From the IMG/VR virus record IMGVR_UViG_3300042296_001032: a DNA stretch of 64,000 nucleotides. One strand, written 5' to 3'. Numbering within the stretch: the stretch's first letter is position 1; each line of letters opens with the position of its first letter. Both the position numbers and the translations under genes were made by a program. The notes beneath the pieces are model-generated. The model was not told the origin of the DNA. It was given only the letters and a program-made list of their open reading frames with translations, and made no database searches. Of the stretch, positions 10,181 through 27,156 are shown one piece after another. This stretch comes from a virus (taxonomy: Duplodnaviria; Heunggongvirae; Uroviricota; Caudoviricetes).

Positions 10181-10906
10181 TTAATTAGCAATAAATTTAG
10201 GCAAATAATTTTCAATAAATTCTTTCATACCCTCAGTGGCAGGTTTTTCAATATAATTAACATCTCTAAACATACCATCTAGTTCACCTTTAGGAGGGTT
10301 GGGGTCGATGCAAACAACGTCTATCACCCCCATATTAGGGTTATGTAAATCTTTACAAGACCTCAATAGACCAAGTGTATAACTTATAAATAATGTGGTG
10401 CCAATAACTAATAAAACATCACAATTTCTAAGAGCTATTACAGATTCATTTATATTATTGGGGTACTCATTAAACCAAACAATGTGTGGTCTTAATTGTG
10501 AACCGTCTTCATGTTTGTCACCAATATTAGTTGGTTTATAACCAACATCAATAACTTTCTTATGGTTTAAACTACTCTGTGCTTTAGTTAACTCACCATG
10601 TAAATGTAAGATGTTTGTAGAACCCCCACGTTCATGTAAATTATCTACATTTTGTGTGATAACGGTTACCTCATGTTCTTTTTCTAATTCAGCAATAAGT
10701 TTATGTGCCTCATTGGGTTCGACACCAAGTAACTGTTGCCTTCTTTTGTTGTAAAAATCCAATACTCTTTCTCTGTCTTTTCTCCAACCTTCAGGTGTGG
10801 CAACAGCTTCAACATCTTCATTTTCCCATGTACCACCAGCATCTCTGAATGTATCAATACCTGATTCCTTAGAAACTCCTGCCCCTGTAAAAACAACTAT
10901 TTTCAT
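10181..10906 (-). CDS. cobB: NAD-dependent protein deacylase, Sir2/CobB family
   Basis: GAGVSKESGIDTFR, QNVDNLHE, HLHG, RPHIVWF and GTT motifs; FYNKRR (YxxR) of class III sirtuins. Confidence 0.9.
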   Translation of the reverse strand: MKIVVFTGAGVSKESGIDTFRDAGGTWENEDVEAVATPEGWRKDRERVLDFYNKRRQQLLGVEPNEAHKLIAELEKEHEVTVITQNVDNLHERGGSTNILHLHGELTKAQSSLNHKKVIDVGYKPTNIGDKHEDGSQLRPHIVWFNEYPNNINESVIALRNCDVLLVIGTTLFISYTLGLLRSCKDLHNPNMGVIDVVCIDPNPPKGELDGMFRDVNYIEKPATEGMKEFIENYLPKFIAN

Positions 10907-11721
10907 TACTTTTGTACAAATTCAAAAAGATTTTCACTATTATTCTTCAACTTTCTTAAAGCCTTTTCTTTAATCTGACGAATACGTTCTTTTGTAAGAC
11001 CAAACTCATCACCAATTTGTTCAAGAGTTAAAGCACCACCATCAACACCAAAATACATGTCAACAATTTTTCTTTCTCTATCACTTAAAATTGATAAAGT
11101 TTTTTCCAATTCGTTTTTTAAGATTTCATCAGACATAGTGTCCTCGTCAGGTCTAGCAAATGTTAAATCAGGAATTAAGTCCATAATCTCATCACCTTCT
11201 TCATTTATTTTATCATTCAATGAAGTACATGTAGGGTGATTTAGTACAGATAAATCCATCTCACCGTTGATTGGCATTCTTTGATTTTCTTGTTCGAAGA
11301 CAGCAATCTCTTTTTTAATTTTTGATAACTGGTTTGTGATATTAACAGGAAGTCTTACTGTTCTTGAATTTTCACACAAAGATTGTAGAATCGATTGCTT
11401 AACCCACCAAACAGCATAAGAAATAAACCTAAAACCTCTTGTATGGTCAAATTTACCTGCAGCTTTTATCAATCCGTAGTTACCTTCAGAAATCAAATCT
11501 ACCAAAGGAATCCCTTGTCCTTGATATTCTTTAGCTATTGAGATAACAAATCTAAGATTAGCTTTAACCAATTTATCTAATGCCCTTTTGTCCCCCTCAG
11601 CAATTTTTTTAGCTAACTCCAACTCTTCTTCGGGTGTTACCAAATCAATCTTTCTAACCTCTTTTAAATAGTTAGAAATAGAGTCCTCTGTTGTGTCAAT
11701 GTAACGTTTGTATGATACCAT
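10906..11721 (-). CDS. RNA polymerase sigma70 factor, Bacteroidetes primary-sigma-like
   Basis: ANLRFVISIAKEY, LISEGNYGLIKAA, FDHTRGFRFISYAVWW (region 2); LTLEQIG...LTKERIRQIKEKAL (region 4); no region 1.1. Confidence 0.92.
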   Translation of the reverse strand: MVSYKRYIDTTEDSISNYLKEVRKIDLVTPEEELELAKKIAEGDKRALDKLVKANLRFVISIAKEYQGQGIPLVDLISEGNYGLIKAAGKFDHTRGFRFISYAVWWVKQSILQSLCENSRTVRLPVNITNQLSKIKKEIAVFEQENQRMPINGEMDLSVLNHPTCTSLNDKINEEGDEIMDLIPDLTFARPDEDTMSDEILKNELEKTLSILSDRERKIVDMYFGVDGGALTLEQIGDEFGLTKERIRQIKEKALRKLKNNSENLFEFVQK

Positions 11722-12892: not shown

Positions 12893-15271
12893 TTATTGTA
12901 CCATTAATGATGATATGTTATTTTTCTTTTTAATTGTTATTATTTTAGTCGCCCAATCTTTAACAATTTCATTATGTGTTATAATAAAAATGTTAGGGAA
13001 CATTTCTGAACATTTCTGAAAGAAGTTTCCAACTAACTCTAAATTAGTGTTAGCAACCTTTCCAAAAACCTCATCAAAAACAATTATGTTAGGTTTTGGT
13101 AGACAACTGACTTTTGACATTACACAACGTAAAGCTAATGATGACACTGTTTTTTCAAATCCACTACCTTCATTAATAGGGTATTTGATAGCCTCACCTT
13201 TTTCGTTTTCTTTTACTATTAAAAATTCAACTTCTTTCTTATCGTTAATATCCACTTCTAATTTAAATGATGCCGTATCTACTAGTAATCTATCCAATTC
13301 TGAGTTAATTAAAGGCATAACACTTCTCATTATTATTTTAAGGATACCATTTTTACCAACCATTCTAGCATAAACATCAAAAATTATTTTAATTTCTTCT
13401 TCTGCTTTAATAGTTTTAATGTATTCCTCGTTCTTATTTATCTTTGTTTTATAAGTTTCAATTTCATTAGATAATCTTTCACCTAATTTAATTTTATTAG
13501 TTTTTTCCAATTCTAATCCACTTATTTTAGAATTATAACCTATTATCTGACTCTCCAAATCTTTATTTTTTTGGATATTGTCTAGATTATCTTCATAACG
13601 TTTTTTAAGGTCTAATTTTTCTTTTCTTTCTAATCTTAATTTTTCTAAATCCAATTCTAGTTTAGAAACCGTTAAAGAAGTTCTATCGTATTCCCAAACA
13701 GAAGATTTAATGTTATCTTGTTCTTTAACTAGATTTGTAATCTCAACTAATTTTTCGGATAAAGACAATAAATCACTACCCAAAGTATCTAATAATACTT
13801 TATTTTCCTCAATTTCATCTGAATGGTCTACATCAGCTAAAGGTTGTTTACATAAAGAACAGAACTCACCCTCTTCTAAATTTTTAATTGTTTTTTGAGT
13901 TTCCTTTATTTTAGATTTAGCTCTCTCTACTTCTAAACTAAATCCTCGTTCTTGTTTTACATATTCCTCATGTAAATCTTCATCATAAACTGGTTCTGTC
14001 ATAGAATCAAAAGATTTTTTAGTATCCTCATACTCACTCTTTTTCTTCTTACCGTACAATTCGATTCTATCAATTTCATTATCAATATCTTCGGGTCTTA
14101 AATTAATAACATCAGAATCTATCTCTATTTTTTTACCAATTAAATTTTCTTTTTTGACTGTGGAAGACTCAATATTAAGTTCTAGGGATTTAATTTCTAA
14201 TTCATTTTCTTTAATCGAGTTTTCATTTTCAGAAATTAAACTTTTTAGTTCACCAATCTCAGAATTTAAGTCTGTAATATTGTATTGGTCTGATTTTAAT
14301 CCTTTTGACCAATTAGATTTCATTTCTTTGACAATAGTTTCTTTGTCTTCAATAACTTCTAATCCAATAAATCTAGATAGGATTCGCCCTTTTTCAGTCG
14401 GTTTGGTGTGAATGATGTCCTCAAGATTGTCGGCATCAGCAATAATTGTTAATAAAAAATCATTCACTGAACCAACCGATTTTTTTATAAATTCTTCTGT
14501 TTCTCTTCTTTGTTCACCTTCTAAGTTTTCAATACTACCATCAGGTAAGGTTCTATAGAAAGATAAGTCTGTTCTAGTGGTATACTCATCACCAGTCCTT
14601 TTAGCTTTACGTACAACAGTTCTCTCGATGATATAATCTACACCATCAATAGCAACTTTACCCTTAACAACTACTTCATTTTTATCTTCTCTAAAAAGAT
14701 TAAACATTTTAATTGCGGTACTACCTTTTGTGGTGGTATTAAAGAAAAGGAATAAAAGTAAATCTAAAGCAAGAGTTGTTTTACCACCCATATTTAACGG
14801 GTCTGAAGTAATCACTGTAATACCCTCTAACTCTTTAAAAGAGATTTTATTACCATCACCATAAGAAAGGAAATTAGACCACTCTAACTCCTTTATATAC
14901 CAATTACGATATCTATAATCTGTTTCTCTTTCTTGTGATAATTTTTCGTTTACTTTATCATCTAAACGTAAGAGTCTATCCCAATCAACATCTACTTTAT
15001 TATCAGTAATCCATTGTTTAAATAACTTTCTTTGATAATTAGTATCCATTACATTATCAGCAACGGTCATTTCTACTTCACCATTTTCAGTGAGTACTTT
15101 TTTAGGTTTAAAAATAACCTGTACATTAGGGTTGTTATATTTCTCAGTAAAGTATTTAGCAATTCTTTTTGCACGTTCCTGGGTGTAATTTTCTGGACTA
15201 TCATCCCATATAACTCTGATTTTAGCCTTTTCAGGCACAACAGTTTTAACTTCTTTTACCAAGTTTTCCAT
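12893..15271 (-). CDS. SbcC/Rad50/T4 gp46-like ATPase with N-terminal extension
   Basis: Walker A GGKTT, long coiled coil with CSLC zinc hook, signature SGFEK, Walker B FDEVFG, H-loop IITHN. Confidence 0.9.
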   Translation of the reverse strand: MENLVKEVKTVVPEKAKIRVIWDDSPENYTQERAKRIAKYFTEKYNNPNVQVIFKPKKVLTENGEVEMTVADNVMDTNYQRKLFKQWITDNKVDVDWDRLLRLDDKVNEKLSQERETDYRYRNWYIKELEWSNFLSYGDGNKISFKELEGITVITSDPLNMGGKTTLALDLLLFLFFNTTTKGSTAIKMFNLFREDKNEVVVKGKVAIDGVDYIIERTVVRKAKRTGDEYTTRTDLSFYRTLPDGSIENLEGEQRRETEEFIKKSVGSVNDFLLTIIADADNLEDIIHTKPTEKGRILSRFIGLEVIEDKETIVKEMKSNWSKGLKSDQYNITDLNSEIGELKSLISENENSIKENELEIKSLELNIESSTVKKENLIGKKIEIDSDVINLRPEDIDNEIDRIELYGKKKKSEYEDTKKSFDSMTEPVYDEDLHEEYVKQERGFSLEVERAKSKIKETQKTIKNLEEGEFCSLCKQPLADVDHSDEIEENKVLLDTLGSDLLSLSEKLVEITNLVKEQDNIKSSVWEYDRTSLTVSKLELDLEKLRLERKEKLDLKKRYEDNLDNIQKNKDLESQIIGYNSKISGLELEKTNKIKLGERLSNEIETYKTKINKNEEYIKTIKAEEEIKIIFDVYARMVGKNGILKIIMRSVMPLINSELDRLLVDTASFKLEVDINDKKEVEFLIVKENEKGEAIKYPINEGSGFEKTVSSLALRCVMSKVSCLPKPNIIVFDEVFGKVANTNLELVGNFFQKCSEMFPNIFIITHNEIVKDWATKIITIKKKNNISSLMVQ

Positions 15272-16513: not shown

Positions 16514-16915
16514 TTAATACTCTATCTCTTCCCATGTTCCATTAGTATTTAGTTTATAACTACCATAACATGGTTTATTCCATTCATTAGGTTTTATGAT
16601 ACTTAAAAAGTTTTCATCATTATTATTCTTATAGATATAATAAATCTCACCTAATATAGGTTGAAATGAATATTTGGTGTTGTATAATAACTTGGTTGAC
16701 TCATACTCATTCAGCAACTTATCATACTCTTCCTTTAATTCTTCTAATTTTTTATTAAAATATTTATCAGCCTTTATTGCATCTGATTTATCTATCTGTA
16801 AAATTTCAAACTTTTGAGCACCCACCGTTGTTGGGTAATGCTTTAGGTTAGCATCAAATTTATCTGTCTTTTCATTAAAGACAATATTATCAGGATATTT
16901 TTTATTATTTTCCAA
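16514..16915 (-). CDS. DUF2452-like protein
   Basis: YPTTVGAQKF, coiled coil, then YSFQPILGEIYYIY...FLSIIKPNEW, as recalled for DUF2452. Confidence 0.65.
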   Translation of the reverse strand: MENNKKYPDNIVFNEKTDKFDANLKHYPTTVGAQKFEILQIDKSDAIKADKYFNKKLEELKEEYDKLLNEYESTKLLYNTKYSFQPILGEIYYIYKNNNDENFLSIIKPNEWNKPCYGSYKLNTNGTWEEIEY

Positions 16916-17126
16916 AATTAAAATTTAAATTAGTCATAGTTGGTTCTATATTATATAGACTTAATCTTTCATCACTTATTTTTATTTTTTTAATTTCACC
17001 ACTAAAGTCAATAACCCATTTACCCATTCCTTTACATTTACAAGTAGGTTGTTCTTTACTAACTATAGTACCTATCATAGTATCTGAAAAAGAATTCTCA
17101 TATTTTACTTTATCCCCTATTGTCAT
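16905..17126 (-). CDS. Small hypothetical protein (SH3/KOW-like start)
   Basis: IGDKVKY...GTIVS; overlaps both neighbours. Confidence 0.45.
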   Translation of the reverse strand: MTIGDKVKYENSFSDTMIGTIVSKEQPTCKCKGMGKWVIDFSGEIKKIKISDERLSLYNIEPTMTNLNFNFGK

Positions 17127-17437
17127 AATTTATGTTTTTTAACGTAATTATATGGTGTTAAACCATCTTTTTTAAATTCCACGTAATGTGACTGTAAGTC
17201 TTGAAATAATGTTCTAGGATAAATCCTTCTTACTATTGGGAACACTATAGTATCAAAACCACCAGTGCTAGGTACTTCATCCACTTCATTAATTAACTGT
17301 GATGTCTGACCCTCAAGTAATGAGGCTATATTTATTTTTGTTTCATTATTAGTGTCTAAACAATCTAACAACCCAGAGTCCATCCACTTTTTAATAATTT
17401 CTTCTCTTTGTGTTGTTAATCCTGAAAAATTTGCCAT
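17123..17437 (-). CDS. Mini-protein resembling the N-terminus of a T4 gp23-type major capsid protein
   Basis: EEIIKKW..SGLL..L...IASLLEGQ.SQLINE...FDTIVFPIVRRIY. Confidence 0.6.
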   Translation of the reverse strand: MANFSGLTTQREEIIKKWMDSGLLDCLDTNNETKINIASLLEGQTSQLINEVDEVPSTGGFDTIVFPIVRRIYPRTLFQDLQSHYVEFKKDGLTPYNYVKKHKL

Positions 17438-17442
17438 TTTAT

Positions 17443-17757
17443 TTATAAAAAATAATTATTATCTGTGTTAGTGATACTAATATCCAAGTTAAGATACTGA
17501 GGTACTCTTCTAGGTCTTAATTGTATATCTTGTATAAAACTGTTATCTTCTATCCTCCAATCACCTATTTGGGATTCCATAATCATTGAGTTTATTGAAT
17601 CAGCTACTTGTGGTGAACAAACAATCCAATTGGCAGGTCCCCCTCTATTACTACTTTGAATCTGTCCAGATAATTCATTTAAAAGTCTATTTAACTCCTT
17701 TTCATAATCAAAATCACCAAAATGGTATTTTTTTATATATTTTTTAGGTTTTATCAT
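17443..17757 (-). CDS. Mini-protein with a capsid C-terminal-like motif and a tail-sheath C-terminal-like motif
   Basis: RGGPANWIVCSPQVA (gp23-like); FIQDIQLRPRRVPQYLNLDISIT (sheath-end-like). Confidence 0.45.
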   Translation of the reverse strand: MIKPKKYIKKYHFGDFDYEKELNRLLNELSGQIQSSNRGGPANWIVCSPQVADSINSMIMESQIGDWRIEDNSFIQDIQLRPRRVPQYLNLDISITNTDNNYFL

Positions 17758-18563
17758 ACTAACCTTTCTATTTCATTTTCAATATCCTCTATTGAGCTTA
17801 TTTTAAAAGTATAAAACCCATAATCGGATTCTAAGTTAATATGTTTATGTTTTTTAGTTTCTACATTCCATATAACAAACCCGTGTTTATCTACAGACTC
17901 ACCAAAATCTTGTTGTATCATTGATGAGGGTTGTACGATAGTAGTTCCATGATAATTCATCACTTGGTATAAGTGAATATCACCACAACAAACAAAATCA
18001 CAACCATCAAAAATAGAAATGTCTTGTCCGTCCTCAAATTCAAACCCAACATTTGTCTTTAAACCAATTAAAGGGTCATGATATAAACCAACGTATGTCT
18101 TATCACCAAAGTCCTCTTTGGCCTTTTCTATTTCAGGTCTCTGTGAACCTTCGATATGACCATATAAACACCAAACAATATTCTCATCCTCAAAACATCC
18201 TGTGTGTTTTAAAAACTTAAGTCTATCATCATTCATTGTATCAATAATGGGTGTTAACGCATCCATTCTATCTAAGTTATTGGCTAAGAAATCGTGGTTA
18301 CCCAAAATAACTATGGTATCACAAATGTCACAACAATTTTTAAAGAACCATGTTGTTAAATCTACTAGTTCAGGTGTTAACTGATTCTTAGAGTGTACCA
18401 CATCACCAGCAATAACAATCCTAACCTCTTCTCTGTTAAGGTTGTTTTCTTCCATATGTTCTTTAACTGAATCAAAGAACTTTTGAAATTGTTCACGGTA
18501 TTCATCGTGTCTTTTATAAAGTCTGATGTGTAAATCAGCACAGTGATAGATTATTTTTATCAT
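17754..18563 (-). CDS. SbcD/Mre11/T4 gp47-like metallophosphoesterase nuclease (short form)
   Basis: ADLH, AGDVVH, GNHD, YHD and GDIH motifs. Confidence 0.9.
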   Translation of the reverse strand: MIKIIYHCADLHIRLYKRHDEYREQFQKFFDSVKEHMEENNLNREEVRIVIAGDVVHSKNQLTPELVDLTTWFFKNCCDICDTIVILGNHDFLANNLDRMDALTPIIDTMNDDRLKFLKHTGCFEDENIVWCLYGHIEGSQRPEIEKAKEDFGDKTYVGLYHDPLIGLKTNVGFEFEDGQDISIFDGCDFVCCGDIHLYQVMNYHGTTIVQPSSMIQQDFGESVDKHGFVIWNVETKKHKHINLESDYGFYTFKISSIEDIENEIERLV

Positions 18564-18889
18564 AATTTAAATTTATTAATTTTTTTTATAGGTTTAAAGT
18601 CTTTTAAATCCTCTATTGATAATCCGTGTATATTTAAAAATTGAATTACTGCCTCTGTAAGTAATTCTTTATATTCAGTTTCAACATTAAAATTAGAATG
18701 ATATACGTCATCTGTGAGTTGAACTGAAATTTGTATATTAGTTTTAAAAGTATAATTACTACTTACTCGTGGATGCCTAAATAAAACTCCCCTAACGGGA
18801 GAAAAGTTATCTGGGTTATACATTATAGGTGTAACCGTGAACCCCAAATGACCAAACTCATTTTCAAACCATTGTGAAATTTCATCCAT
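18560..18889 (-). CDS. Small hypothetical protein, paralogue of 18889-19182
   Basis: WFxNxFGHLGF..P; ends PIKKINKFKL. Confidence 0.6.
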   Translation of the reverse strand: MDEISQWFENEFGHLGFTVTPIMYNPDNFSPVRGVLFRHPRVSSNYTFKTNIQISVQLTDDVYHSNFNVETEYKELLTEAVIQFLNIHGLSIEDLKDFKPIKKINKFKL

Positions 18890-19182
18890 TACAATTCAAA
18901 TTGTTTAATTTTTTTTATTGGTATAAAATCACCATCTAATCTATAACCATAAGTTGTTAATAATGTGTCAAATATTAATTTTCTAAGTTCCTTATCACCA
19001 ACAGTAAAATCTAAAACTCTTTCCAAACTTATCCTAACCATCTGTGTTTTATTGTTATTATATAAAACACCAAAATAAAATTTTAAATCTTGTGTGTCTT
19101 GGTAAAGTGGTGATAAATCAAATCCTAAATGTCCGTAATTATCTAAAAACCAATTTTTGAATGTGGTGTATGATAAATTCAT
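18889..19182 (-). CDS. Small hypothetical protein, paralogue of 18560-18889
   Basis: WFxDNYGHLGF..P; ends PIKKIKQFEL. Confidence 0.6.
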   Translation of the reverse strand: MNLSYTTFKNWFLDNYGHLGFDLSPLYQDTQDLKFYFGVLYNNNKTQMVRISLERVLDFTVGDKELRKLIFDTLLTTYGYRLDGDFIPIKKIKQFEL

Positions 19183-19583
19183 TATAATTTATGTTTTGGT
19201 ATATATTTTATTGGGTCCATTTCAGGATTGTCTTTAATCCATTCACAATAGTCTTCAGCAAAAAAACTACATAACTCAGCCTCAGCATCAAAATTTGTTC
19301 CATGTAAATCACTAATAACCTCTCTATTATCAGTTATAAACTGGTCAAATTTTTGTATTAAATTTGGGACATTTTTAATAATTAAACCTGTTTTACAAAT
19401 TCTATATATTATAGGGAATATAGTAGTTATTAAAAAATCACCACTACCAAATAAAGGACCATCACTAATTAATATAGTGGCAGCCTTTTCATAGGTTATA
19501 GCTGTATTACCTTTAAACTCTTCGGTTAACCCATCTAAAAAACCTAAGTTACCCCACTTTTCAATCACTTCCTCCAAATCCAT
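19182..19583 (-). CDS. Mini-protein resembling the N-terminus of a gp23-type major capsid protein
   Basis: EEVIEKWGNLGFLDGL...NTAITYE...TTIFPIIYRI; ends PIKYIPKHKL. Confidence 0.55.
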   Translation of the reverse strand: MDLEEVIEKWGNLGFLDGLTEEFKGNTAITYEKAATILISDGPLFGSGDFLITTIFPIIYRICKTGLIIKNVPNLIQKFDQFITDNREVISDLHGTNFDAEAELCSFFAEDYCEWIKDNPEMDPIKYIPKHKL

Positions 19584-19977
19584 GTTTTTTTATTGGTTTT
19601 AATTGTACCATTTTACCCATTTTTTGGTTAAATAGGTCTATTATATCTTGGTATTTTCCAGTGAAACCTTCTAATTTAGGTGTACCAGCATAATAAGCAC
19701 TTCCGTCAATAAATAAATCTTTTTCTTTTACATAAAAAAACTCATCTACATATTGTTTCATGGTATTCATGGGTGGTAACATCTTATGTGATGTAATTAC
19801 TCTGTTTATACAGTAACCACATTTTTGAAATATCTTTTCTTTTATTAGTTTTCTACTAGCCCCTGTTGGTGAAACCACTAAAGCTGTTTTTCCACCATTT
19901 TCTTCTAAAAAAAGAACTATGTCCTCAACCATCCTAGTTGATTTACCTGTTTGTCTACCACTTACTTCGACGTACAT
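19561..19977 (-). CDS. Truncated P-loop protein resembling a terminase large-subunit ATPase N-terminus
   Basis: GRQTGKS Walker A, ALVVSP strand, YVDEF Walker-B-like; only 138 aa. Confidence 0.5.
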   Translation of the reverse strand: MYVEVSGRQTGKSTRMVEDIVLFLEENGGKTALVVSPTGASRKLIKEKIFQKCGYCINRVITSHKMLPPMNTMKQYVDEFFYVKEKDLFIDGSAYYAGTPKLEGFTGKYQDIIDLFNQKMGKMVQLKPIKKHGFGGSD

Positions 19978-21129
19978 TTATCTCACCATGTCTATATCGT
20001 TATTCTCTATTCTTTCAAGAGTGTAGATTTCCATTTCGTGTCTTAGTTTATTTTCCTCAACAAGTTTCTCGTATCTTTTTTGTGCTTTCCCTTTCCACCA
20101 CTCAATCATATGAGAAAGTTTGTGTTTATGGAAATTTTGTCCTTCAATTAAAGGAATTTCACCACCAGAATTAACATGTTCAATAACATTGTCGTATCCA
20201 AAGTTTGAATAATAATATCTCTTTTTGGTTTTGGCTTTCATATGTGTTTTGGTGAAAGAATGAAACTCATTATAAGCATCGATATCATAATGTTTAAGGT
20301 GATTTTTAAGGACTGATATTGCCTTATTAAACTCTCTCATCTTTGGTCCTGATGGTACAGGGTCTACAGTATTTCCACCCCATTCAGGGTTACCGTATAA
20401 CTCTCTCATTTTAGCTCTAATCGGCCCATAAACTTCTTCTGTTGGGAATAAAAACAAATCTGATTCTGTCATGTCTTGGTAACGGATATATGGTTTTAAA
20501 CCATCGTATTGACTCATACCTTTGATGTCACCATAAAGGGAGGTTGTTTCAAAAAAACAAGTATCGATTTTATCACCATACTTTTCTTTTAACATATTTT
20601 TAATTTCGTGTGAACATGAAATTAAAGCTAATAGTTTACCACCTAAGTAGTTATACCCAAAAGGTTGTACAGGAACAATAATGGCCCCATTAATCATATG
20701 TCTATTAACAGCTGTAGCTCTAATTGTTTCACCAAAGAAATCATTTCTAGGTTTAATAGATAAAACAGGTGAAGCCACACGAATAAACCCAACATATTTG
20801 TTAGTGGTTTTTTCTCTAATACCCATCATGATTTGTCTACCGATTTGTGATTCTAAAGGTAGTGAAGTGATAATCTGTGTAGAAGGATTAAATAAATTAC
20901 CCTCAATCACCTCGATTTCAAATTCCATGTTTTTTGGCTCAACACTATAATCATCAAACATGTTTTTAGTGTATTTATCGTGGTTAATATCCACAATTTT
21001 TTCTTTTTTTCTAGCCAAAAAATAGTCTTGGATTGACTCAAGGTCTCGGTAAAAATTTATAAATCTATCTTTTATTCCAATTGTCTCCTCTAAAGTTAAT
21101 TTAGGTTCGAATTCTATTTTATCACTCAT
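19978..21129 (-). CDS. DUF4338 / DruA-like protein
   Basis: GRQI...YVGFIRVASP...PRN and PVQPFGYNYLGGKLLAL...ETTSLYG motifs. Confidence 0.6.
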   Translation of the reverse strand: MSDKIEFEPKLTLEETIGIKDRFINFYRDLESIQDYFLARKKEKIVDINHDKYTKNMFDDYSVEPKNMEFEIEVIEGNLFNPSTQIITSLPLESQIGRQIMMGIREKTTNKYVGFIRVASPVLSIKPRNDFFGETIRATAVNRHMINGAIIVPVQPFGYNYLGGKLLALISCSHEIKNMLKEKYGDKIDTCFFETTSLYGDIKGMSQYDGLKPYIRYQDMTESDLFLFPTEEVYGPIRAKMRELYGNPEWGGNTVDPVPSGPKMREFNKAISVLKNHLKHYDIDAYNEFHSFTKTHMKAKTKKRYYYSNFGYDNVIEHVNSGGEIPLIEGQNFHKHKLSHMIEWWKGKAQKRYEKLVEENKLRHEMEIYTLERIENNDIDMVR

Positions 21130-25475: not shown

Positions 25476-25778
25476 TTAAATTGTTGTTATTGTTTGAGTG
25501 TTTGTGGTACTATCGTATGAAATAGCTATACCACTATTATTAACTTTTTGAACAGTGAATGAAACGGGTAATAACCTCATTCCATTAAGACCTAAAGGTA
25601 TCACATCTGCTGCTCCTAAATTAATTGTTTGTAACCTATCATTAACTTTATAGTAAAGGTCGACAGAACTTGACGAAAGGAAAGCGTTGTATTCAGCATT
25701 ATTGTTTCCTTCAACTAAGTCATTAAATTTATTCTGATTATTATAATCACTTAAAGTATTGTAATATATCTTTACCAT
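25476..25778 (-). CDS. Small hypothetical protein in the structural block
   Basis: ORF track; TAATG coupling. Confidence 0.5.
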   Translation of the reverse strand: MVKIYYNTLSDYNNQNKFNDLVEGNNNAEYNAFLSSSSVDLYYKVNDRLQTINLGAADVIPLGLNGMRLLPVSFTVQKVNNSGIAISYDSTTNTQTITTI

Positions 25779-26923
25779 TAGTTAACTATTAATATATTGT
25801 TATATCCTAATATTGTTGCATTAGGTTCATAAACGAAGTTTAAACTTACATTACCACCTATAATCGGTAGGTCTCCAGTATCGTTAAGTCTTAGTCTAAG
25901 ATTAATTGGCATCTCCCATTTATCAAATGAAGTTTCTTTAAAATAAAACTCAACATGATTTTTAGCTTTTTCAATCATACCGATAATTAAAGATTGTTCA
26001 TCTGAATTTTGGTACCCCCAAATGGCTTGAGCCATAAAACCATTTAAATCAACTGAATTATATGTTCTAGGTTCTTTTAAATAATAAACATCTTTAGAAC
26101 CATTACTTCCAAGTAATACTGCCGGTCTAATTTCCTTATAACTAGAAGCTGTACCCATTTTGTTAAATGGAATAAAGTTTGTTAAACCATTAACAACGTA
26201 CCCAAATTGTGGGGCGTTAAATGTTAAAAATGAGTTATGACCTTCTAAGTAATTATTACCTTCTATATTAGCACCAAAACCAAATAGTAATCCAGTATAG
26301 AATCTATCAAAAGATTTATCTGATTGGGTTCTAACACCGTTATCAAAACTTATATACTTACTATTAAAGTTTACGTAGTTCTTTTTATCCTCATCACCAA
26401 AGAATTCATATGAAGTAACAAAGTTATTTGTTGTATCTAAATTAGACCAAGCATTAGTCACAAAGTCTTGTTCTTGTTTTACTAAATAAATCCCTTGGAA
26501 TAATTTTAAACTTGTTTCTAGATTTTCTGTATAAGCTGAATAAGTTGTTACATCCGTTAACCAAGCAAAGTATTCGTGTAAGTTTATTGTCATTGTTAGA
26601 TTACTACTAGTGTAATCATTAACACCACAGTCTTGTTTGTAAAAATTAACAACCCATCTCTGTGCAGTCTTTACCATTTCTTGCATTGGTGGTGGTGTGA
26701 CTTGTGCTTCCGTTGGGATAGCGTCAGTACATGATTTTCTTGCTGTAAATAAATTTTTAGAACCTGTTATATTCATTATGTCTTCCAGATTTGGGTCCGT
26801 AGTGACGTAATAAAGTTCATTCATATCAGATAAGCTAAAATACTTAAAACTCTGTTCAGCACCATTAGTCATTACTCTACGTAATCCGTAATTGGTTAAT
26901 TTTAAACTTACATTATTTGCCAT
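25778..26923 (-). CDS. Virion structural protein (baseplate/collar family)
   Basis: N-terminal LKLTNYGLRRVMTNG...FKYFSLSD shared with neighbouring genes. Confidence 0.5.
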   Translation of the reverse strand: MANNVSLKLTNYGLRRVMTNGAEQSFKYFSLSDMNELYYVTTDPNLEDIMNITGSKNLFTARKSCTDAIPTEAQVTPPPMQEMVKTAQRWVVNFYKQDCGVNDYTSSNLTMTINLHEYFAWLTDVTTYSAYTENLETSLKLFQGIYLVKQEQDFVTNAWSNLDTTNNFVTSYEFFGDEDKKNYVNFNSKYISFDNGVRTQSDKSFDRFYTGLLFGFGANIEGNNYLEGHNSFLTFNAPQFGYVVNGLTNFIPFNKMGTASSYKEIRPAVLLGSNGSKDVYYLKEPRTYNSVDLNGFMAQAIWGYQNSDEQSLIIGMIEKAKNHVEFYFKETSFDKWEMPINLRLRLNDTGDLPIIGGNVSLNFVYEPNATILGYNNILIVN

Positions 26924-27156
26924 TATTCTTTTATTTTTACTTTATATCTTGGTTCACTTTTAGTTGTAGAACTTTTATGACTACCCGTTATTTCTAGAAT
27001 ACCTTGTGGTTCAACACATAAATGATATATTACTGTATCATCCGAAAAACTAAAGTATCTAAACGTATCTTTGAACCCATTAGTTAAAAACTTTGTTTTA
27101 CCATATGGAGTTAAGATTAATTTTACTTCATCAATATTGTTATCTAAAAATCCCAT
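26923..27156 (-). CDS. Stand-alone N-terminal module of the same family
   Basis: MGFLDN...LILTPYGKTKFLTNG...FRYFSFSD. Confidence 0.5.
   Translation of the reverse strand: MGFLDNNIDEVKLILTPYGKTKFLTNGFKDTFRYFSFSDDTVIYHLCVEPQGILEITGSHKSSTTKSEPRYKVKIKE

Follow-up and report, generated by a model that had tools for sequence, protein, structure and literature searches.

The window analysed here, 64,000 nucleotides of the IMG/VR virus record IMGVR_UViG_3300042296_001032, contains a cluster of small genes that carry pieces of gp23, the major capsid protein encoded by the same phage. These genes, termed A, B, C, E and F, lie with a sixth small gene, D, in a recombination operon around gp47. It is very probable that A, B, C and E descend from the gp23 of their own lineage by partial duplication accompanied in part by internal deletion ("telescoping"), that they are maintained by selection, and that E and F are paralogs. 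The window corresponds to bases 108218–172217, read on the reverse strand, of a 226-kb virus record with an estimated completeness of 70%; the phage is T4-like, with a GC content of about 30%.

Capsid-derived pieces in the gp47/gp46 operon

The five capsid-related mini-genes ("minis") and D form a tightly overlapped minus-strand operon together with gp47, a Mre11/SbcD-like nuclease (17754–18563, minus strand; Pfam Metallophos 5.7e-9; PHROG SbcD-like 4.9e-16) that is the conserved anchor gene within the cassette, and the Rad50-like gp46 (window 12893–15271). The phage's own gp23, of 599 amino acids (aa), is encoded at genome 27752–29551, about 125 kb from the minis. A sequence-only reading had described A, B, C and D as intact, tightly overlapped open reading frames (ORFs) in a replication and recombination region far from any head gene, and all four are as described; E and F were absent from its list.

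Every small ORF was compared by BLASTP with all ORFs of the 226-kb genome, and Smith-Waterman z-scores were derived from shuffled sequences. A (104 aa; 17123–17437, minus strand) holds a copy of the gp23 propeptide and N-arm at 17189–17407. Its residues 11–83 match gp23 22–94 with 45% identity (E 1.7e-14; Smith-Waterman z 25.6, 0/300 shuffles). C (133 aa; 19182–19583, minus strand), of which A is a shorter paralog with 38% identity, carries the same part of gp23 at 19383–19574, residues 4–62 matching gp23 23–83 with 40% identity (E 2.8e-10; z 17.0, 0/300 shuffles). A profile of 19 C-family members aligns with gp23 23–88 at an hhalign probability of 96% (E 4.9e-9). Further along C there is a spine-helix-like "FDAEAEL" piece, where residues 88–120 ("FDAEAELCSFFAEDY") resemble the spine-helix stretch gp23 385–403 (z 4.4, 2/1000 shuffles). 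The sequence-only reading had named both the N-terminus and the C-terminal region of gp23-type capsids for the motifs of the cluster; in A and C the N-terminal assignment stands, and both proteins lack the C-terminal region of gp23.

B (104 aa; 17443–17757, minus strand) consists of a tail-like motif at the N-terminus, a spine-helix-like piece and a copy of a gp23 A-domain strand at about 17587–17700. The whole of B matches gp23 with a Smith-Waterman z of 6.5 (0/300 shuffles), and residues 30–60, with the segment "RGGPANWIVCS" that had been singled out as gp23-like, align with gp23 458–480 (z 4.8, 0/1000 shuffles). B also matches positions 222–259 of the Pfam Gp23 model with E 0.0012 and 18.8 bits, below the cut-off of 24.4 bits. 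The C-terminal part of B had been likened to the end of a tail sheath. This origin (PF04984) was rejected: residues 58–104 score z 1.4 against the phage's own sheath (930 aa, genome 79597–82389), a score reached by 32 of 300 shuffles, and no sheath family was found for it in Pfam or PHROGs.

E (109 aa; 18560–18889, minus strand) has a stop that overlaps the start of gp47 and contains a copy of the gp23 C-terminus at 18704–18850, in which residues 14–62 match gp23 547–595 with 37% identity (E 9e-7; z 13.5, 0/300 shuffles). F (97 aa; 18889–19182, minus strand) is 28% identical to E (E 4e-7). Significant local homology to gp23 was found for A, C, E and B, and F is linked to gp23 only via E; a wider profile of the E/F family matches gp23 with a probability of 63% (E 7e-5).

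The native order of gp23 is kept in C and in the first two pieces of B, with large internal deletions, and A resembles C with one more deletion. The best local alignments of B 1–36 and E 63–92 share one 16-residue window of gp23, but they are weak. Two further copies lie outside the window (L015:134-755). X1 (78 aa; genome 185533–185769) repeats gp23 529–585 with 46% identity and scores 29 bits against Pfam Gp23. In X2 (141 aa; genome 185729–186154; 79 bits), whose start overlaps X1 by 41 nt, gp23 357–417 (59% identity) is fused to gp23 79–108 (53%), with the native order broken. The possibility that the minis are pieces of one split capsid-like protein was rejected, because the pieces are duplicated and partly out of order and because A, B and E are missing in relatives that retain D and F. 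Altogether gp23 is the donor for five of the eight small ORFs that significantly match a larger protein of the same phage, and it makes up about 0.85% of the coding capacity.

The minis descend from gp23 yet lie outside the capsid family by score threshold, fold and length. A, B, C and E share with gp23/gp24 (PF07068, HK97 fold; PDB 5vf3, 6uzc, 1yue) segments of 23–73 residues that are 37–45% identical to the phage's own gp23. Taken together, these segments span the propeptide and N-arm, with the part aligned to the T4 Gol region, as well as the A-domain strand RGGANF and the strands of the C-terminus. They differ from gp23 in having 97–133 instead of 599 aa, with one or two segments each and some out of native order, in a tail that gp23 lacks, and in their place in a recombination operon. 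In no single chain are all parts of the HK97 fold (N-arm, E-loop, P and A domains) present. Pfam returned nothing for A, C, E and F, and the gathering threshold of PF07068 (24.4 bits) is passed only by X1 and X2. C is confidently predicted to be an autonomous helical domain with a disordered tail: the AF2 model is a six-helix bundle (pLDDT 82, pTM 0.77) whose first three helices are the gp23-derived part and whose last 13 residues are disordered. Among solved structures the model has no meaningful match (best Z 6.2, a helical bundle) and no capsid protein matches it, and in BFVD there is one look-alike, an uncharacterised 166-aa Myoviridae protein (probability 1.00, TMq 0.64). A complex prediction of gp23 with C scored 0.00 and gave no call, which speaks neither for nor against binding.

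T4 itself offers an independent precedent. The product of T4 gene 61.1 (NP_049649.1, 54 aa, hypothetical; L028:4967-5131), encoded beside the primase gene, is like the minis a small replication-region ORF that copies part of its own gp23: residues 2–38 match T4 gp23 57–93 with 46% identity (E 6e-9). Unlike the minis, it copies only the cleavage-site region, begins with a CTS-like leader, MKTFKEFIKE, and has no PIKK-type tail, and no sequence similarity between it and A is detectable. The phage's own gp23 61–107 aligns with T4 gp23 77–126, and on this basis the copies in A and C extend from the propeptide through the cleavage region into the first half of the T4 Gol region. In T4 the Gol region triggers the e14 Lit protease and binds EF-Tu; the segment lining up with T4 gp23 ~94–110 is found in A as "VFPIVRRIYPRTLFQDL" and in C as "IFPIIYRI...VPNLI". 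Gol is a region of a full capsid protein and turns a defence on, whereas the minis are diverged copies that the phage encodes as separate small proteins. Another parallel is provided by microProteins and inhibitory fragments (PMC10769210), which are eukaryotic regulators or engineered, unlike the phage minis. As in these, each mini is a small protein homologous to one part of a larger protein that oligomerises, and by this likeness the natural reading would be competition for native contacts. No description of natural phage capsid-fragment mini-genes was found in literature searches.

Selection and turnover among relatives

Five close relatives from different samples (L016–L020) and five more distant ones (L007–L011), whose gp47 is 81–95% identical, were compared with the window. 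In the close relatives D, C, F, E, gp47, B, A, G and H occur in the same order, all intact and of nearly constant length. Protein identity to the window copy is 98–100% for gp47 (98–99%) and the DruA-like protein encoded upstream of D, 94–96% for D, 92–94% for C, 80–95% for F, 88–91% for E, 78–83% for B and 74–89% for A; the mini proteins evolve 5–10 times faster than gp47. Nonsynonymous-to-synonymous ratios (dN/dS, computed as pN/pS) are 0.05 for gp47 and the DruA-like protein and 0.10–0.12 for H, which is under strong constraint. The ratios are 0.17–0.25 for D (p<=0.011), 0.12–0.43 for C, 0.38–0.44 for F (p 0.005–0.017), 0.27–0.39 for B (p 0.004) and 0.38–0.47 for A (p 0.004–0.014), each of these five being significantly below 1 in at least one pair (p 0.0003–0.02). 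The view of the sequence-only reading that these genes are something other than debris is supported; dN/dS lies below 1 for five of the six ORFs, and E is only weakly constrained.

In the more distant relatives D and F are kept at only 39–61% identity and C is kept in three of the five; A and E are absent from all five, and B is found there only as a truncated ORF of 62 aa in one genome. Orthologs of F thus occur in all ten relatives examined, and A was found only in the closest clade. A complete 380-kb relative has no C beside gp47, and fragments of the X1/X2 type were not found in it. This genome does contain a 207-aa ORF away from gp47 with a weak match to gp23 21–96 (24% identity, E 2.7e-4; G004:C1:349555-349791).

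The wider families consist of stand-alone small proteins. The C family comprises 25 clusters of 87–143 aa, nearly all of 128–143 aa. Among 1.84 billion representatives the E/F family forms 29 clusters at 50% identity, all of 41–115 aa, and no full-length capsid protein was found among its hits. The C family shows little or no variation at residues that it has in common with gp23 (K9, W10, G14, L19, Y31, E32, F56, P57 and R61), and the E/F alignment conserves an N-terminal EIxxWFxxEFGxLGF together with the gp23 C-terminal motif LTPxMYNPxxFxPxRGV. Intact in five independent close relatives and belonging to families made up of small proteins, with dN/dS significantly under 1 in all but E, the minis are selected, fast-evolving and rapidly replaced accessory genes and not pseudogene debris. 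Gene content changes fast between the relatives, a turnover that would fit the usual behaviour of arms-race genes.

No close cultured relative of the window DNA was found. Among cultured phages the matches of A are confined to the N-termini of capsid proteins from Flavobacterium phages, and one unannotated uncultured phage record of 484 kb matches as well. The lineage of this gp23 is represented by at least 598 contigs; judged by the capsid N-terminus, Flavobacterium phages are the nearest cultured relatives.

The shared tail and the P-loop protein D

D, C/A and E/F, otherwise unrelated, have a common C-terminal end of the form P-[IL]-K-[KEQ]-[IV]-x-[KEQ]-[FLH]-[KE]-L (DFxPxKKIxKFKL type). On the minus strand the tail reads DPIKYIPKHKL in C (19185–19214), TPYNYVKKHKL in A (17126–17155), FKPIKKINKFKL in E (18563–18592) and FIPIKKIKQFEL in F (18892–18921), and D has the motif KPIKKH (19582–19602). 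Similar motifs stand at the N-terminus of B (KPKKYIKKYHF) and of X2 (EPIRKIPKFNF, in the +1 frame relative to X1), and no other ORF of the 226-kb record carries one. The tail is the best-conserved part of E/F and is predicted to be disordered in both families that were modelled, C and D. The stop codon of a tail gene is mostly fused with the ATG of the next gene. That the tail merely results from an A-rich stretch serving translation initiation of the following gene was rejected as the sole cause: 29 deep clusters agree at the D-F, P, F/H and L positions, the codons for P, I and L vary synonymously, and N-terminal copies exist, all of which argues for a motif at the peptide level. Several ORFs begin with a leader M-x-x-LIKKILKE (genome 187855–188283, 210295–210759, 222315–222851 and 215639–217534), whose IKKI core is common with the mini tail; the 142-aa ORF at genome 187855 contains, in addition, copies of two segments of the 458-aa gene before it.

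D (138 aa; 19561–19977, minus strand) carries a Walker A motif, GRQTGKS, a Walker B motif, VDEF, and an invariant CGxxC. Its family was found in 29 clusters, and in the 25 aligned homologs of 133–149 aa the residues R8, G11 and K12 (Walker A), D78 and E79 (Walker B) and C53 and C56 are invariant, together with a DxxAYY strand. The ATPase motifs noted in the sequence-only reading are hence real, and its proposal of a terminase ATPase is not upheld. D shows no similarity to the phage's own terminase large subunit (TerL, genome 16741–18594) by Smith-Waterman (z 0.0) or hhalign (probability 2.3%), on which grounds a fragment of this protein was rejected, and among all ORFs of the phage nothing matched D at E<0.79. 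Pfam searches with the 25 members returned AAA_19 for 15 (best 6.6e-6), UvrD-helicase for six and Terminase_6N for three (best 0.03); the family profile against PDB sequences gave only spurious matches (lipin 0.0018, UvrC 0.54). The AF2 model is a minimal RecA-like core (pLDDT 69). In structural comparison by VIA-align the Rep helicase and the T4 gp17 ATPase both score Z 7.1 (for gp17, root-mean-square deviation 4.0 over 129 aligned residues), among dozens of superfamily 1 and 2 (SF1/SF2) helicases at Z 6–7, and Foldseek returned nothing at E<=0.001. D resembles ASCE P-loop domains (AAA_19 and UvrD-helicase; terminase ATPase PF03237, T4 gp17 PDB 2o0h) in its RxxGK[ST] Walker A with an invariant P-loop arginine, its Walker B VDE and its RecA-like core. 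In contrast to helicases and terminases it has only 138 aa, with neither a nuclease nor a second helicase domain. The most fitting description of D is a mini P-loop NTPase whose ancestry is uncertain and which by sequence is closer to the SF1-helicase AAA_19 than to terminase.

Possible functions and neighbouring genes

We tentatively favour tail-addressed mimicry as the role of the gp23-derived modules, which would imitate surfaces of gp23. The cassette would be expressed alongside the early or middle recombination genes, and the tail would be a short linear motif that docks all the tailed proteins, D included, to one common partner. The modules would then expose conserved parts of the gp23 surface (propeptide and N-arm, spine helix, C-terminal strands) to their usual binders, which may be the chaperonin, the scaffold, the protease, gp23 or a sensor by which the host detects gp23, so that the target would be occupied, diverted or blunted. 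This reading is preferred because gp23 is over-represented as a donor, gp23-like residues are conserved, turnover is fast, T4 gp61.1 offers a precedent, and the N-terminus of T4 gp23 was reported to target fused proteins to GroEL (PMC3012670). In such a role the minis may serve as decoys for sensors of the CapRel or Avs type, as dominant-negative inhibitors or as assembly modulators, as the sequence-only reading had proposed. T4-type late promoters are of no use for the timing of expression: the word TATAAATA has 34 and 56 sites against about 51 expected and is not enriched, none is listed within 60 nt upstream of gp23, and the one copy 10 nt before the start of A is probably due to chance.

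Several observations weigh against capsid mimicry. D has the tail without capsid ancestry, so the common denominator of the cassette is the tail and not the capsid. No direct match of F to gp23 was found (Smith-Waterman z -0.4), and a narrow F/E profile matches gp23 weakly (E 0.05). In the C family the gp23-like part is conserved no better than the rest (0.72 against 0.78–0.80), and the second gp23-like piece of B is not kept in orthologs. E has a pN/pS of 0.69–0.90 against the window copy, which is not significant, and of 0.33 between relatives (p 0.044). Moreover, in T4 the Lit defence is switched on, and not blocked, by free Gol peptide from gp23; a faithful mimic of gp23 could therefore harm the phage.

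An extended form of the proposal holds that huge T4-like phages repeatedly make tail-addressed capsid mimics, expressed before the capsid gene, which would blind or pre-empt an immune sensor of the major capsid protein (Lit/Gol-, CapRel- or Avs-like) or the chaperonin. We regard this as unlikely; if true, it would be a general, undescribed strategy of counter-defence or host takeover, with T4 gene 61.1 as its testable model and tractable entry point in the laboratory. The major capsid protein is among the phage molecules read by bacterial immunity. If phages systematically encode diverged, free-standing capsid surfaces, this would suggest that counter-defence or the control of assembly has a further, new level, and part of the small genes that lack annotation in large phages would gain a function. 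The conserved, predicted disordered tail on unrelated small proteins offers a handle for identifying the common partner.

Alternatively, the gp23 pieces may have been raw material only, the present job of the minis being unrelated to the capsid; the tail would recruit D, C/A and E/F to a replication and recombination hub as accessory factors of gp46/gp47. We hold this to be somewhat less likely than mimicry. In its favour, the operon is shared with gp47 and gp46, and a primase, a RuvC-like resolvase and an exonuclease are encoded nearby; the tail is the best-conserved element, is borne by D, which has no capsid origin, and is N-terminal in B and X2. C is a predicted helical bundle unlike any part of the HK97 fold, and its gp23-like part is not specially conserved. 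The sliding clamp is a candidate for the hub, as the tail has by eye a PIP-box-like I-x-x-F spacing with basic flanks and occurs at either terminus, but no clamp gene was found in the 226-kb record with PF02916 and PF09116. This explanation leaves unaccounted for the share of gp23 among the donors of fragment-derived small ORFs and the presence of a capsid-derived mini-gene in another lineage, T4 61.1. Even so, exapted raw material would document the birth of small phage genes from core genes.

It is distinctly unlikely that the minis are virion cargo, loaded into the prohead through the propeptide-like part or the tail as internal proteins and injected at the next infection. A and C do contain a copy of the gp23 propeptide, the part that is turned towards the scaffold core in T4 (PMC3012670; established T4 biology), and A has a LINE site like the LINE of gp23; several ORFs of the phage start with xLIKKILKE, which shares its IKKI core with the tail, and T4 gp61.1 starts with the CTS-like leader given above. 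However, the protease-like LINE of A is lost in orthologs (LVNQ in L017/L018) and the C family has Asp or variable residues at this site, the tail stands at the C-terminus and lacks a conserved (L/I)xE cleavage site such as would mark a CTS-type targeting peptide, and the genes sit in a replication and recombination operon and not among head genes. Least probable is slowly decaying debris, that is, partial duplicates in a hyperplastic region that are open only because they are short and recent: the ratio of E against the window copy, the confinement of A, B and E to the closest clade and the lack of X1/X2-type fragments in the complete 380-kb relative would agree with it, but all ORFs are intact and of nearly constant length in six genomes, five of six have pN/pS significantly below 1, identities of only 37–45% to gp23 and down to 36–45% between members have accumulated in an AT-rich genome yet with no stops or frameshifts, motifs are invariant and the fold of C is confident, so that debris is largely refuted for D, C, F, B and A. 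The remaining probability belongs to none of mimicry, raw material, cargo or debris.

Besides the cassette, the window encodes a primase, a RuvC-like resolvase, a PD-(D/E)XK exonuclease, a sigma factor and a DruA-like protein. The last cassette gene, H (window 16514–16915, minus strand), encodes a DUF2452 protein (E 1.3e-11). Directly upstream of D lies the DruA-like gene (383 aa; window 19978–21129, minus strand; Pfam DruA, a Druantia defence component, E 5.3e-15; PHROG 19197, E 2.8e-89), whose product is 99% conserved across close relatives. Downstream of gp46, a gene for a Sir2-like protein (window 10181–11721, minus strand; PHROG 2162, E 1.4e-41) adjoins the sigma-factor gene (PHROG 351, E 6.4e-63). 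In a distant relative with a gp47 of 36% identity, the Mre11-like and Rad50-like proteins are apparently fused into one ORF of 1102 aa (L012:5989-9297). Another mini-gene formed by partial duplication, in this case not of gp23, is a 77-aa ORF (window 26923–27156, minus strand) that duplicates residues 1–60 of the 381-aa gene beside it (25778–26923, minus strand) with 38% identity (E 3e-9).

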